From the IMG/VR virus record IMGVR_UViG_2675903562_000001: DNA of 6,048 nucleotides, one strand, 5' to 3'. Shown here in pieces: positions 1-6,048 of the stretch. The DNA comes from a virus (lineage: Duplodnaviria > Heunggongvirae > Uroviricota > Caudoviricetes). The notes beneath the pieces were generated by a model that was given only the letters and a program-made list of their open reading frames with translations, was not told the origin of the DNA and searched no databases. A program made the position numbers and the translations under genes. Position 1 is the stretch's first letter, and each line of letters opens with the position of its first letter.

Positions 1-107
1 CCCACGGCCATTGCAGACAGCGTTACTTTTTTCCCGCCGGGGACAGTGGCGGCTGCCAGCTTTGCGGCTCCGGCAGTAGTGATAACGGTTTTAAATTTCG
101 TGCTCAT
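1..107 (-). CDS. H: Tail fiber protein, N-terminal 35 codons only (gene continues beyond window start)
   Basis: Minus-strand ATG at 107..105; translation MSTKFKTVITTAGAAKLAAATVPGGKKVTLSAMAV closely matches the conserved N-terminus of P2-family tail fiber gpH as I recall it. Lies 10 nt downstream of the I stop, in the expected I-to-H order. Open to the window edge. Confidence 0.7.
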   Translation of the reverse strand, partial: MSTKFKTVITTAGAAKLAAATVPGGKKVTLSAMAV

Positions 108-117
108 TGTTTCTCAC

Positions 118-645
118 TTATCCGGGATAAACAGTAATAACATCACCATCACAGACCACACCGCCTGTATACAGATAGCCTGGAATGTCCTGGATAATGT
201 TCAGGCCGATAAGGTGGCGACTTGCGGGTTTGGCATCGGCAATCAGCCGTTCCATTTCCAGATACATTTCCTCAGTCACGCCACTGTCCAGCGTGCCAAC
301 ATCAACCTTGAATGTTCCGGGTTCGCCGTCGAACTCCCACCACTCAGACACGCGAATGAGGTATCCCAGCGGCTCAATGGCCCGGCGCAATGCGCTGATG
401 GTCCCTTTGTGTCGGTGTATCAGCCATGCATCACGAATAACCTGTCGCTTTGTCTCTTCCGGCCAGTTGCGATCCCAGCGGTCAACGGAAAATGCCCAGG
501 CGAGATAAGGCAGCAGATGCACCGGGCAGGTGTCCGGTGACCACAGCGTGTTGAGGTCTACCGGGATGTTTGTAATGCGCGCTCCGACAGCTTCGGCGCA
601 ACGCATGAAATTGCTGGCTGATGGTGGTAACAGTGAATTACTCAT
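118..645 (-). CDS. I: Baseplate assembly protein I (175 aa)
   Basis: Sub-range of listed ORF 118..678. Preferred start is ATG at 645 with RBS AAGGTGG upstream; the ORF start at 678 is GTG with no RBS. Translation (MSNSLLPP...DGDVITVYPG) resembles P2 gpI along its length. Overlaps the J stop by 8 nt. Confidence 0.85.
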   Translation of the reverse strand: MSNSLLPPSASNFMRCAEAVGARITNIPVDLNTLWSPDTCPVHLLPYLAWAFSVDRWDRNWPEETKRQVIRDAWLIHRHKGTISALRRAIEPLGYLIRVSEWWEFDGEPGTFKVDVGTLDSGVTEEMYLEMERLIADAKPASRHLIGLNIIQDIPGYLYTGGVVCDGDVITVYPG

Positions 646-1534
646 TACGCCCACCTTCGCTGATGGTGAATGACTCACAGCGCGCCGCCTGTATGTCGCT
701 GATGGCCATATTCTGTGTGGGTTCGATTATCTCCACGCGTTGCACACCGTGCACATGCAGTGCGGCAGCAATGGCGGACAACGCCACGTCCTGACCGATA
801 AGCCCCTGCTCAGCCAGCCACTTCCTGAACGACGATTCAGCCGCAGCCAGAATAGGTTCGGATTCCGGGCCGGGATAAAAGTACAGTTTTGCATTCAGCC
901 GCCATGTCACGATTCTGGCACTCTGTACGGTCAGGCGGTCGGCCACCGGGCGGGTATCCTCTGCATTCAGAACGGCACGAACGGTATTAAGCAACGCCTC
1001 CGTTGCTGTGCCGTCGCCTTCAGTGGACAGGATGGAAACCGTCACGTTGGCCGGAGACGGACTGATAGCCCGCGCATCACGCACCAGACCGCTGGCGCTG
1101 CGGGCAAAATACTCGTATGCACCTGACGGGCCAGCAACACTCAGGCCGTCGTACGCCCGCTGCGCCCGCAGTCTCAGCGAGGTGTCACTCTCCATCACCG
1201 CGTCGGTGGTATCCGTTGCCGGAGTGATGGTCAGGCGCTTTGTGTTCATATTGCCCGCGAGGTTGTCCAGGTCTGTCCCGGTGCTGTGGCTTAACATGCA
1301 GGCCCGTGCCCCCTCATTGACCCGCTGGCGTAACAGCATTTCACGAAACGCTGTTGTCTGGGCGATAACGTTCAGGGGTTCCGATTCCAGCTCCAGCGCG
1401 GCGGAGACGGCTTCACGCTGTTCGGCGGGATAAGCCGCAATCATCATGGCCTTTGTGTCAGCCAGAATTGCCTCAAAATCAGGCTCCGCGATAATGGCGG
1501 GGTCCGGTAACTGGGAAAGGTCAACAGCAGGCAT
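638..1534 (-). CDS. J: Baseplate assembly protein J (298 aa)
   Basis: Listed ORF 638..1534. Translation (MPAVDLSQLP...ESEPL...RLTITPA...VADRLTVQSA...YPGPESEPI...HVHGVQRVE) matches P2 gpJ along its whole length from memory. Start is 3 nt after the W stop. Confidence 0.9.
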   Translation of the reverse strand: MPAVDLSQLPDPAIIAEPDFEAILADTKAMMIAAYPAEQREAVSAALELESEPLNVIAQTTAFREMLLRQRVNEGARACMLSHSTGTDLDNLAGNMNTKRLTITPATDTTDAVMESDTSLRLRAQRAYDGLSVAGPSGAYEYFARSASGLVRDARAISPSPANVTVSILSTEGDGTATEALLNTVRAVLNAEDTRPVADRLTVQSARIVTWRLNAKLYFYPGPESEPILAAAESSFRKWLAEQGLIGQDVALSAIAAALHVHGVQRVEIIEPTQNMAISDIQAARCESFTISEGGRNE

Positions 1535-1537
1535 GAT

Positions 1538-1888
1538 TTACTCTCTCAGCGTGATGGTTAATTCAACATTCTGCATGGTCTGCATGACAGTGCCCGACAG
1601 CGTCACCCCGGCGCGGCCTCCTGCCTTCCAGACAACGTCGATGGCATCCAGGGCAATGCGGGGTTCCCATCGCGTCAGTGCAATCACGGCAGCACTCATG
1701 CATTGCAGACGCGTGGTGTTATTCATGGGTTCGTCAATCAAATCAGGCACAAGGCTGCCATATTCCCGTCGCATAACCCGGCTGGCCAGCGGGGTGGTCA
1801 GGATGTCCCTGACTGACTGTTTCAGGTGCTCCGTATCGTTCAGGTTTCCCGTTCTGTCCGGGTTCATTCCTGTGTAGCGGGTTGTCAT
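1538..1888 (-). CDS. W: Baseplate protein W (gp25-like wedge protein, 116 aa)
   Basis: Listed ORF. Translation MTTRYTGMN...SRVMRREYGSL...WEPRI...VTLSG resembles P2 gpW. RBS AGGAGG 6 nt upstream. ATGA overlap with the V stop. Confidence 0.9.
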   Translation of the reverse strand: MTTRYTGMNPDRTGNLNDTEHLKQSVRDILTTPLASRVMRREYGSLVPDLIDEPMNNTTRLQCMSAAVIALTRWEPRIALDAIDVVWKAGGRAGVTLSGTVMQTMQNVELTITLRE

Positions 1889-2466
1889 TGCGGGCCTCCT
1901 GTCGAATCGCTGCCACCTTTAACGCCACCGTGTTTATGCGTATGCACTGTGATGCCGTTTGAGGTGAAATTGCCGCCGCTGTGCGTGATATTGCCGCTCA
2001 TCTTTCCCCCTTTTGTGACGTCAAGCGTCGCTGTTCTCAGAAGGTCTGTGCATTCCACGACGGGCGTGTCCAGTGTCACGCTGACGGATGCCTGCAGGGT
2101 GGCCGTTTTCATGCCGCTGGCGCTCAGTGCGCCTGCGTCCGCGTCGTAGCGGAACACCGCGCCATCCGGCGCGCTGATCACGATTTCTTTCAGGCTTTTG
2201 CCGGGGGCCGGACTGGCATCACTCCACAGGCTGCCAATTATCATGGCGGTTTCCGGGTTGCCGCCAATGCAGGCAATTGCCACCTGTTCGCCTGGTGATG
2301 GCGGCAGCCACACATTGAAGGCTCCCGCGCGCGTGGTGTTCCAGCGCAACCAGCCTGTTTCCAGTTCGCCGCTGCGAACGCGCACGCGCCAGGACTTCTC
2401 ATCAACTTCAGAGATGATCCCGGTACGGATGATATTGCTCAGCAGTCGCATGAGTTCTGCGCTCAC
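1885..2466 (-). CDS. V: Baseplate spike/hub protein V (193 aa)
   Basis: Listed ORF with GTG start at 2466 preceded by RBS GGAGG at 7 nt spacing. Translation (…IRTGII.EVD…WL.W…RAG…GEQV…PDGA…TLD.P.V.CT…TL.V.KGG.M.GNI.H.GG…SNG…HTHKH) is typical of P2 gpV. Confidence 0.85.
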   Translation of the reverse strand: MSAELMRLLSNIIRTGIISEVDEKSWRVRVRSGELETGWLRWNTTRAGAFNVWLPPSPGEQVAIACIGGNPETAMIIGSLWSDASPAPGKSLKEIVISAPDGAVFRYDADAGALSASGMKTATLQASVSVTLDTPVVECTDLLRTATLDVTKGGKMSGNITHSGGNFTSNGITVHTHKHGGVKGGSDSTGGPQ

Positions 2467-2573
2467 CGTACAGCCTCCGCAATCCGGCCCAGCACCGTGT
2501 TATAAATCAGGCGCTCATCTGTCTGGCTGATACCCAGCAGCTCACGTGCCGGGTACCCCGGCGCTGATAATAT
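2463..2573 (-). pseudogene. Orphan open frame of 36 codons with no start codon (ILSAPGYPARELLGISQTDERLIYNTVLGRIAEAVR); likely the displaced C-terminus of the upstream lysis gene or a remnant of a deleted tail completion gene
   Basis: Minus-strand frame open from 2573 to a TGA at 2465..2463 that overlaps the V start (GTGA coupling). It is +1 relative to the Rz-like ORF, which stops at 2544..2542. No ATG/GTG/TTG start with an RBS inside it. Confidence 0.35.
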
Positions 2574-2718
2574 TCAGGGTGTCGGCGGTACTTTTCAGGG
2601 TGCTGGCCTGCGCTTCGTTTCTGGCGTTCTCCCGGCCCAGCGACCACGACAGACGCATGGATGTTCCCCATCCAGCAATCAGAAGGAAAGCGACGCCCAG
2701 CGTGGGCCAGAGCTTCAT
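2542..2718 (-). CDS. Small membrane lysis protein, Rz/LysB-like (i-spanin-like) N-terminal portion, 58 aa, apparently truncated by a frameshift
   Basis: Sub-range of ORF 2542..2862. ATG at 2718 in ATGA overlap with the endolysin stop. N-terminal hydrophobic segment MKLWPTLGVAFLLIAGW followed by a charged, Ala/Gln-rich stretch. Position after holin and endolysin matches lysB in P2. Ends prematurely at 2542, after which the frame shifts. Confidence 0.4.
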   Translation of the reverse strand: MKLWPTLGVAFLLIAGWGTSMRLSWSLGRENARNEAQASTLKSTADTLNIISAGVPGT

Positions 2719-3107
2719 GCCGGATAGGCTCCGTGTGGTAACTGAAAATGCGGTCCGTCTTTCAGGGTCTTCCAGTCGCCGCCCCATTCCACCGGAATAT
2801 TCAGTTCCCGGCTGGCCTGTCTGAATGCTGCTGCGATTTTTTCGTACAGCGGCCATTCCCATGACACCTGGCTGCCGATATAAGCCACAACATCCACGGC
2901 ATGTCCCGTAAGGTGGCGGCTGTTCATGGTCTGGCTCTTACCCGTGGCCACCAGTTGCTTCTGGTGGTAACGGCTGCGCAACCCTTCGGTGATACCAAAA
3001 TCCACTTCCGAAATTTCCAGTGCCCGTCGGGTCACTTTCACCAGATCAGGATTTACGCCCTGCAAATTCTTTTCGCTCCGGCTGCTGAATTTAAATGTGT
3101 TGCTCAT
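2715..3107 (-). CDS. Endolysin, peptidase M15 (VanY / L-alanyl-D-glutamate peptidase-like) family, 130 aa
   Basis: Listed ORF. RBS AAGGAG upstream and ATGA overlap with the holin stop. Contains SRHLTGHAVD and a C-terminal GPHFQLPHG, consistent with the His/Asp/His zinc-binding arrangement of M15-family cell-wall peptidases such as the T5-type endolysin. Sits in the endolysin position directly after the holin. Confidence 0.8.
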   Translation of the reverse strand: MSNTFKFSSRSEKNLQGVNPDLVKVTRRALEISEVDFGITEGLRSRYHQKQLVATGKSQTMNSRHLTGHAVDVVAYIGSQVSWEWPLYEKIAAAFRQASRELNIPVEWGGDWKTLKDGPHFQLPHGAYPA

Positions 3108-3427
3108 TCGTCCTTCTCCTTCACCCTGCGATTAAAGGCTGCAATAACCTTGTCGCGTGCTTTCTCTGCGCCCATAAAACCGATTGATGCGCCGATAAAC
3201 GTCACGGCATCTTCAGGAAAACCGAAGAAGCGCAACGATCCGGCCACGGCCATGGCAAGAACGCCGCACGCCAGCGATCCCGTTACGGTCTGAACCAGTG
3301 TTCGTCCGTCATAAAGACTCATCAGCGCGGAAATGCTGACCGCCGCGCCTACTGCATACACCGTTGGCAGGTGGTCAAAGAGCCACGCAATAACCTGCTC
3401 TGTGATCCCTGTTTGAATGGTGCTCAC
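3104..3427 (-). CDS. Class I holin, lambda S-like (107 aa)
   Basis: Sub-range of ORF 3104..3646 (the long N-terminal extension overlaps X and is rejected). GTG start at 3427 with RBS GGGGGAG upstream, overlapping the X stop. Three hydrophobic segments and a charged C-terminal tail (EKARDKVIAAFNRRVKEKDE). The segment FIGASIGFMGAEKARDKVIAAF resembles the lambda S C-terminal region. Confidence 0.65.
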   Translation of the reverse strand: MSTIQTGITEQVIAWLFDHLPTVYAVGAAVSISALMSLYDGRTLVQTVTGSLACGVLAMAVAGSLRFFGFPEDAVTFIGASIGFMGAEKARDKVIAAFNRRVKEKDE

Positions 3428-3429
3428 TG

Positions 3430-3630
3430 CTACTCCCCCCACAACTGAATCATTTCTCGTTTCTTCTTCTCCGGCTCCGGCATCTCCACTTCCTGCCCGG
3501 CGTCCAGAAATACCTGCTGACAGAGTCCGGGGTTGGCATCCAGCACCTTTTCGGTGACGCCCTGCGTCGTGCCGTAGTACCGGAAACAGAGCGAATCCAC
3601 GGTGTCGCCTTCCAGTACCTTCACTTTCAT
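3430..3630 (-). CDS. X: Tail protein X (LysM-like, 66 aa)
   Basis: Sub-range of ORF 3430..3663; ATG at 3630 in ATGA overlap with the L stop. Translation MKVKVLEGDTVDSLCFRYYGTTQGVTEKVLDANPGL matches P2 gpX (…GDTLD..C.RYYG.T.GV.E.VL.ANPGL). Confidence 0.8.
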   Translation of the reverse strand: MKVKVLEGDTVDSLCFRYYGTTQGVTEKVLDANPGLCQQVFLDAGQEVEMPEPEKKKREMIQLWGE

Positions 3631-4124
3631 CAGCACAACTCCGCAAAGATTCGCGGGCGGCACAGAATGTCAGAGATGGCCCAGCTCACATCACGCCACA
3701 AATCCGATGTCTGTATATCCAGTGCGTCCGCCCGGCGGTCGCCCTTGTCCGTTGTGTCCGCATCGCGGTAACGCTCCAGTATCAGGGCGCGTGTGGCGGT
3801 ATAAACAGCATTGCGCCAGTGCCAGAGATTGACGCTTTCTCCGTTAATTGCGGGTGCCGGAACATCGGCCAGCGTCTGATGGCCAGCTGCCTGCTGTTCC
3901 TGCTGCCATGCTTCCAGCTCGCGGGTAACGTGTGCCACAGCCCCGGTGGCAGTATGCAGCAGGCGGGAGGTGGTCACGCGGCCCGGCAGTCGTACCGCCA
4001 GACGCAGCTCGCGCAGCACAATATCCGGCCAGAATGCACCCGCTGAAATGCGGGTATCGCCATCATCGGTATCGGTGATGTCGTCCTCTGCGGGTCCGGG
4101 TTCAGTTCTGGCAACCATACTCAT
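3630..4124 (-). CDS. L: Head completion/stabilization protein L (164 aa)
   Basis: Sub-range of ORF 3630..4133; ATG at 4124 preceded by RBS AGGAG at 8 nt spacing. Translation contains F.PDI…LADVPA…GES…ERYR…DKGD.RAD…LWRD..WA, matching P2 gpL as recalled. Confidence 0.85.
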   Translation of the reverse strand: MSMVARTEPGPAEDDITDTDDGDTRISAGAFWPDIVLRELRLAVRLPGRVTTSRLLHTATGAVAHVTRELEAWQQEQQAAGHQTLADVPAPAINGESVNLWHWRNAVYTATRALILERYRDADTTDKGDRRADALDIQTSDLWRDVSWAISDILCRPRIFAELC

Positions 4125-4138
4125 GGGGTTCACTCCTG

Positions 4139-4209
4139 AAAAAAATCGGGCGGTGGGTGCGCGGTGTAAACGGTCACGGAGTCAAACCGGAACACCGCGC
4201 ACGCCGCCC
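4139..4209 (-). terminator. Putative rho-independent terminator (or attenuator) on the minus strand between O-like and L
   Basis: Minus-strand sense reads GGGCGGCGTGCGCGGTGT, a 24-nt loop, ACACCGCGCACCCACCGCCC, then GATTTTTTT. This is an imperfect GC-rich stem of about 17 bp followed by a T7 run, immediately upstream of the L RBS. Confidence 0.45.
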
Positions 4210-4219
4210 GCTGACGGGG

Positions 4220-4807
4220 TCAGTCGTTAATCCCCATTACGCGGTTAAACCACTGGGTGCCTTCTTCCTGGCGTTGTTCTGCCATTTCGATGATTTCAGA
4301 CTCGATGGCTTCGGAAATGAGCGGTGCTTCACCCTGGACACTGTTGAACGTCATCACCGCCTGACGCTGCTGTGCCGTGAATTTCAGGCGCTCAGTGCCC
4401 AGGCTTGCCGGGGTGTCGGTCATCGCCAGCCCGACCAGATAGGCGCGCCCGTTAACGGAGAACTGCGGGTGCAGTTCGATACTGGAATAGATTTTCTTGC
4501 CGTCCGCGACAAGCTGCTTCATGCGCTCGGTCGGTTCGATTTCTGCATACAGCGCAGTACGTCCGGCCAGCGGACCTTCCGTAATGTCTTCCGTACTCAG
4601 TGCGGTGACATCGCCCATTGCGGAAAATTCGCTTGACGGGCATGGCGAGAGATAGTGCTCAACGTTCACGCGGGCAGCGTAAACATCCGGGTTGAAGTTC
4701 TCGGCGGCTTCACGCAGATGCACCGGACTGATTTCACGGCCATCAACAGTTGATCCGGAGACAGCCACGCGAAACTTTTTGCGGGATGTCTTTTTTTCAT
4801 TAGCCAT
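4220..4807 (-). CDS. O: gpO-like capsid maturation protease domain (195 aa), short relative to P2 gpO; C-terminal scaffolding region apparently absent
   Basis: Sub-range of ORF 4220..4840; ATG at 4807 with RBS GAGGGG upstream. Translation (…FRVAVSG.TVDGR.IS…NVEH…YSSIEL.PQF…YLVGLAMTDTPASLGTE…) matches the N-terminal protease part of P2 gpO, including candidate catalytic His about 51 and Ser about 108. It ends roughly 55 residues after the PASLGTE motif, whereas P2 gpO is about 284 aa by recollection. Confidence 0.7.
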   Translation of the reverse strand: MANEKKTSRKKFRVAVSGSTVDGREISPVHLREAAENFNPDVYAARVNVEHYLSPCPSSEFSAMGDVTALSTEDITEGPLAGRTALYAEIEPTERMKQLVADGKKIYSSIELHPQFSVNGRAYLVGLAMTDTPASLGTERLKFTAQQRQAVMTFNSVQGEAPLISEAIESEIIEMAEQRQEEGTQWFNRVMGIND

Positions 4808-4961
4808 AGTTTTTGCCCCTCTGACTGGTTCTTCAGTCATGATGGCAAAGCGTAACAGGCTGATACAAAGGGCTTTTGTTGTAAGAAAACGGCCAGAACA
4901 GGGGGTTAAGGAGAACGGTTTCGCGCGCGGGTAATCTTCCTGTAATTACTCAGGGGGAGCA
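4808..4961. promoter_or_regulatory. Divergent intergenic region between O-like (minus) and terminase P (plus); expected site of the two divergent late promoters
   Basis: 154-bp non-coding gap between divergently oriented genes, as in the P2 P|O late-promoter region. Contains an imperfect dyad TGT-N12-AGA (4880..4897) that only partly matches the Ogr/Delta-type TGT-N12-ACA element, and a palindrome ACAAAGGGCTTTTGT (4865..4879). No clear sigma70 -35/-10 pair identified. Confidence 0.3.
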
Positions 4962-6048
4962 ATGATTCAGGACGCTTTTGTGCGCCAGCGTGCGCGGCAA
5001 CTTTACTGGCAGGGTTATCCGCCCGCAGAAATATCACGTCTGATGGGAATAAACCCGAACACGATTTATGCGTGGAAAAAACGCGACCAGTGGGATGAAA
5101 CGCCACCCGTGCAGCGTGTCACGCAGTCCATCGATGCGCGCCTCATCCAGCTTACTGAAAAACAGAATAAAACAGGTGGTGACTTTAAGGAAATAGACCT
5201 GCTGACCCGGCAGCTTAAAAAACTGCATGATGGCCAGCCGGATGCGACGGCCACAGGAAAGAAAGGCCGGGCGAAAAAACTTAAAAATCATTTCACGCCG
5301 GAGCAGATTGCCGCACTGCGGGAAAAAATCATCAGCAGGCTGGAGTGGCATCAGCGGGGCTGGTTTGACTCCCTGAGCCTTTGCAGGGAAGCCGGGATAC
5401 GTAACAGGATGATCCTGAAATCCCGACAGATTGGGGCGACCTGGTATTTTGCACAGGAAGCACTGCTGATGGCGCTGCGTGACGATGTGGCACAACCTTA
5501 CCAGCGTAACCAGATTTTTTTGTCTGCGTCGCGTCGTCAGGCGTTCCAGTTTAAAAGCATTATTCAGAAGGCCGCGGCTGAAGTTGATGTGGAGCTGAAA
5601 GGGGGCGATAAAATCATCCTCTCCAACGGCGCAGAACTGCATTTTCTCGGTACTTCTGCTGCGACGGCACAGTCCTACACAGGCAATTTTTATTTTGATG
5701 AATTTTTCTGGGTCAGTCGCTTTGCTGAACTGCGCAAGGTGGCTGGCGCTATGGCAACCCTCAGCGGGCTGCGACGCACCTACTTCTCCACGCCATCCAC
5801 CGAAACGCACGAGGCATACGTCTACTGGAACGGCGACCGCTGGAACGAGAAAAAGGCCGCGCATAAACGCCAGCGTTTTTCTGTGGACTGGAAAACGCTG
5901 CATAACGGGCTTATCTGCCCCGACCGGACGTGGCGGCAAATTGTCACGCTGGAAGATGTGGTTAATCACGGCTGGAAACACACCGATATTGACGAAATTC
6001 GTGATGAAAACACCGAAGACGAGTTCCGCAATCTCTATATGTGTGAGT
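4962..6048 (+). CDS. P: Terminase large (ATPase) subunit, gpP-like, N-terminal 362 codons (continues beyond window end)
   Basis: I translated this frame by hand from the ATG at 4962 and it stays open to the window end; it is not in the ORF track, presumably because it has no stop within the window. G-rich RBS immediately upstream. N-terminus looks HTH-like (YWQGYPPAEISRLMGINPNTIYAWKK). Contains ILKSRQIGATWYFAQEAL and a Walker-B-like NFYFDEFFWV. Divergent orientation from O matches P2. Confidence 0.75.
   Translation, partial: MIQDAFVRQRARQLYWQGYPPAEISRLMGINPNTIYAWKKRDQWDETPPVQRVTQSIDARLIQLTEKQNKTGGDFKEIDLLTRQLKKLHDGQPDATATGKKGRAKKLKNHFTPEQIAALREKIISRLEWHQRGWFDSLSLCREAGIRNRMILKSRQIGATWYFAQEALLMALRDDVAQPYQRNQIFLSASRRQAFQFKSIIQKAAAEVDVELKGGDKIILSNGAELHFLGTSAATAQSYTGNFYFDEFFWVSRFAELRKVAGAMATLSGLRRTYFSTPSTETHEAYVYWNGDRWNEKKAAHKRQRFSVDWKTLHNGLICPDRTWRQIVTLEDVVNHGWKHTDIDEIRDENTEDEFRNLYMCE

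Follow-up and report, generated by a model that had tools for sequence, protein, structure and literature searches.

The short lysis-to-V interval of a defective P88-like Escherichia coli prophage is very probably the scar of a 1,385-bp deletion

The window analysed here, a stretch of DNA of 6,048 bp, is almost certainly the late-gene region of a P88-like prophage (Xuanwuvirus, P2 family) of Escherichia coli that became defective via two simple deletions. Judging from alignments with intact P88-like phages and prophages, the short interval from the lysis genes to the baseplate gene V is very probably the scar of one of these deletions, which is 1,385 bp in length. A first-pass annotation of the same DNA had noted that only about 250 bp separate the endolysin stop from the start of V. 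This spacing was confirmed, with the endolysin stop at 2715 and the GTG of V at 2466.

Gene content and relatives of the window

Genes in the window were identified using Pfam and annotated relatives. Across all retained DNA, the window shares 97.7% nucleotide identity with phage P88 (NC_026014; Xuanwuvirus P88, Peduoviridae) and 99.3-100% with a prophage of E. coli strain 5283 (NZ_CP103762; locus L002). The identity and colinearity that define a P88-like element (Xuanwuvirus, Peduoviridae) were observed throughout, the two deletions excepted. The gene order, P / O, L, X, holin, M15 endolysin, Rz-like gene, V, W, J, I, H, is the same as in P88 and the strain 5283 prophage. In contrast to both, the window lacks 1,385 bp, which comprise lysC, R, the 3' two-thirds of the i-spanin gene, and the greater part of S, and also lacks 2,178 bp, which comprise the 3' end of O, N, and M. 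The element does not carry the complete set of essential morphogenesis genes of a functional phage.

The large terminase gene P starts at about 4962 on the plus strand and continues past the right end of the window. The other genes are on the minus strand. They begin with a truncated gene for the gpO scaffold (4807..4220; PF05929), followed by the genes for the head completion protein L (about 4133..3630), the tail protein X (about 3630..3430), and the holin (3427..3104; PF05106). The endolysin gene (3107..2715) is intact and encodes an M15 metallopeptidase of 130 aa (PF13539, Peptidase_M15_4, 46 bits). It is located directly 5' of the broken spanin gene and is colinear with the P88 endolysin gene and the M15 metallopeptidase gene of strain 5283. 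The broken spanin/S region (2718..2463) lies between the endolysin gene and V (2466..1885), which encodes an intact baseplate spike of 193 aa from a GTG start codon (PF04717, PF18715, and PF18946). W (1888..1538), J (1534..638), and I (678..118) are located downstream. Outside the two deletions, the window showed zero gaps or frameshifts relative to the strain 5283 prophage, and the other genes are full length.

We also noted an ORF of 315 codons at 5034-5981 on the minus strand, antisense to the large terminase gene. This ORF is not called in any of the related loci and is most likely a spurious open frame of GC-rich coding DNA.

The late region of P2 (Y, K, lysA, lysB, lysC, R, S, and V) similarly proceeds from a lysis cassette to R and S and then to V. 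Moreover, gpR, gpS, gpV, gpO, and LysC of the P88 type belong to the same Pfam families as their P2 counterparts. However, P88-type elements encode an M15 peptidase as the endolysin and have no annotated lysA, and in the intact P88-like relatives the S stop and the V start overlap directly (GTGA). In P2, an intergenic region and a dedicated late promoter precede V. At the DNA level, P88 shows little similarity to P2, with 5% coverage (PMC5285337). The first-pass annotation used P2 as its reference for gene content. This choice was slightly off; the proper comparator is a P88-like phage, which carries a DUF2570 Rz-like gene, lysC, R, and S. No lysA was found in the window.

The deletion junctions and the gene remnants

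A megablast search with window positions 1800-3700 against phage genomes returned 12 records with full coverage, including P88, 503458, 520873, 500465-2, PhiR44_2, Chuche, and Xuanwuvirus P884B11. All 12 matched the 1,901-bp query in two pieces that spanned 3,285-3,286 bp. The query was also covered by at least 80% in 656 E. coli genomes, and the same two-piece pattern was present in 25 of 25 among the matches listed. The span in the relatives is 1,385 bp longer than that in the window. Therefore, the window is without 1,385 bp that are present in every relative. No intact relative with a short lysis-to-V spacing was found among those compared.

Blastn alignment to the prophage of strain 5283 (L002), which is the closest relative, yielded three gap-free blocks. 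Window positions 1-2555 aligned to L002 4202-6756 (99.84% identity), 2553-4230 to 8139-9816 (99.34%), and 4228-6048 to 11992-13812 (100%). The junction of the 1,385-bp deletion is at 2553-2555, where a 3-bp microhomology, GTA, is common to both parental ends, and the deleted interval corresponds to L002 6757-8138. At this position, the left parent reads ...CACGTACCGGGTA|ATCGGTG..., the right parent ...ATATCCTGTA|CCCCGGCGCTGAT..., and the window ...CACGTGCCGGGTACCCCGGCGCTGAT.... The missing 1,385 bp are located exactly at the break in the reading frame for which a deletion scar had been one of two explanations offered, and the alignment to intact relatives supports this explanation.

The second deletion, of 2,178 bp, was mapped in the same alignment to 4228-4230 (context 4133-4840), with the microhomology TAA. 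The genes for the major capsid protein (N) and the small terminase (M) were lost with it, together with the C terminus of gpO (residues 194-278). The L upstream region is fused to gpO codon 193, and of the 278 residues of gpO, only those up to residue 193 remain. Tblastn did not reveal any match to N or M in the window.

The 1,385-bp deletion joined the GTA within the Rz-like i-spanin gene, after codon 55, to the GTA located 30 codons before the end of S. We infer that it arose by microhomology-mediated illegitimate recombination or replication slippage in the integrated prophage and was then fixed in one E. coli lineage.

In the intact relatives (P88 and strain 5283), four genes are present between the endolysin gene and V, and these are annotated as a DUF2570 protein, LysC, a tail protein, and a virion morphogenesis protein. 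The DUF2570 protein (135 aa) matches PHROG 214 'Rz-like spanin' (E 7e-42). Its scores are below the cut-offs of Pfam DUF2570 (20.1 vs 26.6 bits) and NCBIfam LysB (16.3 vs 92.75 bits). We assigned it as an i-spanin because of the PHROG 214 match, the position of the gene, an N-terminal hydrophobic segment, and the overlapping LysC gene. LysC (89 aa), the o-spanin encoded by this overlapping gene, matches PF23793 (48.9 bits, cut-off 27). The tail protein is gpR (155 aa; PF06891 GpR, 136.6 bits), and the virion morphogenesis protein is gpS (211 aa; PF05069, 97.6 bits; TIGR01635, 73.7 bits).

The deletion removed i-spanin codons 56-135, which encode the periplasmic two-thirds of the protein, the whole of lysC, the whole of R, and S codons 1-181 of 211 (about 86% of gpS). 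Of the i-spanin gene, 166 nt are retained, and of S, 93 nt. The i-spanin remnant (2554..2718, minus strand; DUF2570/PHROG 214) consists of codons 1-55 of 135 and includes the N-terminal membrane anchor. Over residues 1-55, its identity with the 135-aa DUF2570 protein of E. coli 5283 is 100%, and it matches PHROG 214 with an E value of 1.3e-8 (profile positions 10-60 of 176). A full i-spanin, in which the N-terminal anchor is followed by the entire periplasmic domain, is not encoded. The parental lysC gene (L002 7746-8015) lies entirely within the deleted interval, and tblastn identified no match to LysC, and hence no o-spanin partner, in the window. The parental gpR gene also falls inside the deletion. 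No gpR homologue is present between the lysis cassette and V, and tblastn of the window and of the related loci L003-L012 returned no match to gpR.

The two remnants are out of register because 1,385 is 2 modulo 3. The i-spanin frame runs into the S remnant out of frame and halts three codons later, resulting in an ORF of 58 aa, and the S remnant persists as a start-less frame of 36 codons overlapping V. Both frames had been described in the first-pass annotation, and both were found as described. The 58-codon chimeric ORF (2718..2542, minus strand) has its ATG at 2718 and its TGA at 2544..2542. Its translation, MKLWPTLGVAFLLIAGWGTSMRLSWSLGRENARNEAQASTLKSTADTLNIISAGVPGT and a stop, begins with i-spanin residues 1-55 at 100% identity and ends with PGT and the stop, which are read from S DNA out of frame. 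The 36-codon frame (2573..2463, minus strand) is stop-free and in the +1 register, and its terminal TGA overlaps the GTG of V (GTGA). It is translated as ILSAPGYPARELLGISQTDERLIYNTVLGRIAEAVR and a stop, namely, five out-of-frame i-spanin codons and then the last 30 codons of gpS.

The S remnant proper (2463..2555, minus strand) consists of the last 30 codons and the stop of this tail-completion/virion-morphogenesis gene, and this stop, a TGA, overlaps the V start codon GTG. A comparison of the 36-aa tail with S, which had been proposed as a check, gave a clear result: 28 of 30 residues were identical between the remnant, YPARELLGISQTDERLIYNTVLGRIAEAVR, and the gpS C terminus, YPVRELLGISQADERLIYNTVLGRIAEAVR. 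The remnant also matches PHROG 26 'tail completion or Neck1 protein' (E 5.7e-7) and has a sub-threshold match to PF05069 (positions 121-144 of 148, E 5e-4). A full-length gpS domain with a start codon (PF05069 and TIGR01635) is not present; 30 of 211 codons are left, and these are start-less.

The other explanation offered for the frame break was a one-base homopolymer indel, caused by slippage or sequencing error, in a run of four G residues, which would have split an Rz/LysB-like gene of about 85 aa coupled to V. The run exists (C4 on the plus strand, 2556..2559; G4 on the coding strand), the break adjoins it, and the removal of one G in silico fused both frames into an ORF of 84 aa. However, the break itself is the deletion junction at 2553-2555, which immediately adjoins the run, and the run is unaltered parental i-spanin sequence. 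The right-hand parent reads CCTGTACCCCGGCGCTGAT at this position, with the identical CCCC, and the intact 135-aa gene reads through a G4 of equal length in frame as GCC GGG GTA CAG (A G V Q). Furthermore, the downstream frame is gpS rather than spanin, and the 84-aa product would be an artificial i-spanin::gpS chimera and would not represent the restoration of a gene. The absence of 1,385 bp at the break relative to every relative and the recurrence of the junction sequence in 10 independent assemblies also argue against an indel, which we regard as having a negligible probability. When the region was examined as a homopolymer frameshift, for which a run changed by one base between colinear flanks is characteristic, the run length was equal to that of the parent and the flanks were 1,385 bp apart in the relatives; this candidate was rejected.

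Distribution of the deletion allele

An exact look-up of the chimeric 58-aa protein, the only approach that recovered the allele, showed that 36 blocks of the assembly collection contain it. At least 10 loci with the chimera were recovered from 10 different samples, namely, nine isolate assemblies from NCBI and one metagenome assembly from ENA. Both junction sequences were present exactly in 10 of 10 loci (junction 1 as a 26-mer); the two deletions co-occur in all of these related loci. Four loci are 100% identical to the entire 6,048-bp window. Relative to the window, L006 carries 4 SNPs and L009 carries 9, all in the terminase gene, and both loci retain both junctions. That these two loci share the junctions despite the SNPs elsewhere indicates that both junctions have been inherited. 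The chimeric protein is recorded as a 'hypothetical protein' on at least 21 E. coli contigs, the longest of which is 4.87 Mb, and a truncated gpO of 195 aa is recorded on 12 contigs, such as that of E. coli CE549.

Neither junction was detected in any of the 5,426 complete RefSeq E. coli genomes using 141-bp junction-spanning queries at a coverage of at least 80%. The two halves were present separately in about 1,030-1,080 of these genomes; for junction 1, both halves were about 1.4 kb apart in about 1,030. An exact scan of GTDB representative genomes found neither junction, and an exact scan of IMG/VR and JGI metagenomes, which was for junction 1 only, found none. These absences would fit an assembly artefact, in which the short spacing resulted from a collapse or mis-join in the source assembly. 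However, the homology at the junction is only 3 bp, and hence there is no repeat able to collapse. Identical junctions were present in 10 assemblies from differing samples and sources, including the 4.87-Mb contig, and L006 and L009 keep both junctions in spite of their SNPs. An artefact of this type is extremely improbable. The deletion allele is genuine, heritable, and limited to one E. coli lineage.

The SNPs of L006 and L009 are confined to window positions 5768-6028, corresponding to about 260 bp of the terminase gene. Such clustering is more suggestive of a small recombination patch than of mutations scattered along the sequence.

These results have implications for annotation. The 58-aa 'hypothetical protein' of public E. 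coli assemblies is a truncated i-spanin with an out-of-frame gpS remnant, and the prophage that encodes it needs to be marked as defective, without spanin, R, S, N, and M. The two base-exact junctions may serve as convenient lineage markers of the E. coli clone in which they occur.

Predicted consequences and fate of the element

The first-pass annotation reported R and S as missing, and tblastn of the window found no homologue of either. Relocated copies of R, S, lysC, N, and M were sought by tblastn in the window and, on identical contigs, in flanks of up to 10 kb on each side; none was found. Like the window, 20 kb of the identical locus L003 contain no R, lysC, N, or M, and most of S and the 3' end of O are likewise missing from both.

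For P2, PMC11099176 (Table 1) lists gpS as the tail completion protein and assigns tail-to-head joining to gpR, with a tail-head junction phenotype. The full module is present in P88, an inducible phage that produces plaques (PMC5285337). Tails lacking gpR and gpS would be neither completed nor joined to heads, and without N and M, capsids could be neither made nor filled. The earlier view that tails would be incompletable unless R and S were supplied in trans appears reasonable from the gene content. However, it understates the damage because N, M, and the C terminus of O are lost from the same prophage. Regarding lysis, the intact holin and endolysin would still act, and the final, spanin-less step of outer-membrane disruption would fail or be impaired. 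The i-spanin remnant would be a membrane-anchored stub of 55 residues without an o-spanin partner. The element would yield infectious particles only if a co-resident P2-family phage supplied the lost functions. The megablast search with window positions 1800-3700 revealed up to 7 matching places per E. coli genome, and another P2-family prophage in the same genome may hold R, S, N, M, or the spanin genes.

The baseplate gene downstream of the scar encodes a gpV that is identical to P88 gpV at 190 of 193 residues and to the 188-aa V annotation of strain 5283 over its length. The annotated start of V (window 2451-2466) differs between these relatives. In P88, it is the GTG that overlaps the S stop (193 aa), and in strain 5283, PGAP placed it at an ATG five codons downstream of this GTG (188 aa). 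A GGAGG motif, read directly from the sequence, is located 7 nt 5' of the GTG and favours the GTG over the ATG as the putative start. The translational coupling of V to S would be lost in the deleted element, and V is probably still translatable from its own Shine-Dalgarno sequence. A strict TGT-N12-ACA scan for an Ogr-type late promoter for V gave no hit in the window, the sites that it returned in L002 were at chance level, and a scan of 2300-3200 for sigma-70 and terminator consensus sequences found no match. V-W-J-I-H may still be expressed because the GGAGG is kept and no terminator-like site is present between V and the upstream genes.

The element is a lineage-specific defective prophage that reflects the ordinary deletional decay of a known phage genus, with a loss of function of a known kind. 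In decayed enterobacterial prophages, as in this element, essential morphogenesis genes have been lost through internal deletions at short microhomologies, with the other genes, accessory cargo included, left intact; the window allele is confined to one lineage, and no unusual difference from such prophages was observed. The general picture of defective prophages is reportedly that drawn by Bobay et al. in PNAS in 2014 ('Pervasive domestication of defective prophages by bacteria'). The present case adds one documented example of a prophage inactivated by deletions at short microhomologies and does not pose a new biological question.

Alternatively, the doubly deleted element may have been retained by selection as a helper-dependent or domesticated unit and may not be neutral debris. 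It keeps the portal, large terminase, head completion, holin-endolysin, baseplate, and fibre genes together with defence cargo, and a co-resident P2-family phage would supply N (capsid), M, R, S, and the spanins and mobilize the element. The intactness of the retained window genes, with zero gaps or frameshifts relative to L002, is consistent with such retention, as are the persistence of the allele across multiple isolates with few SNPs, the IetAS defence pair carried by the element, and the presence of several P2-family prophages in many E. coli genomes. However, no signal of selection was obtained, and a recent deletion in a clonal lineage accounts equally well for the intact remainder. Genes were cut at arbitrary internal points, leaving out-of-frame stumps, as random decay predicts. 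We consider retention by selection to be very unlikely and favour ordinary decay.

Three accessory gene sets were noted outside the window at L003, and they occupy what we take to be variable-cargo positions of P2-family phages. An AAA ATPase and an S8 peptidase are encoded beside the portal gene (L003 1172-4455) and score strongly as an IetA/IetS anti-phage defence pair; PADLOC identified IetA with an E value of 2.5e-89 and IetS with 5.7e-41. At the edge of the cargo region beyond IetAS (L003 1-793) are genes for a ParM/StbA-like actin-type segregation ATPase and Plasmid_stab_B, a plasmid-type partition cargo that appears unusual for an integrated P2-family element. A hexapeptide-repeat (LbetaH) acetyltransferase gene lies between the genes for tail-fibre assembly and gpU, in the opposite orientation (L003 15850-16395; L002 525-1070), and may be a lysogenic-conversion or cargo gene.
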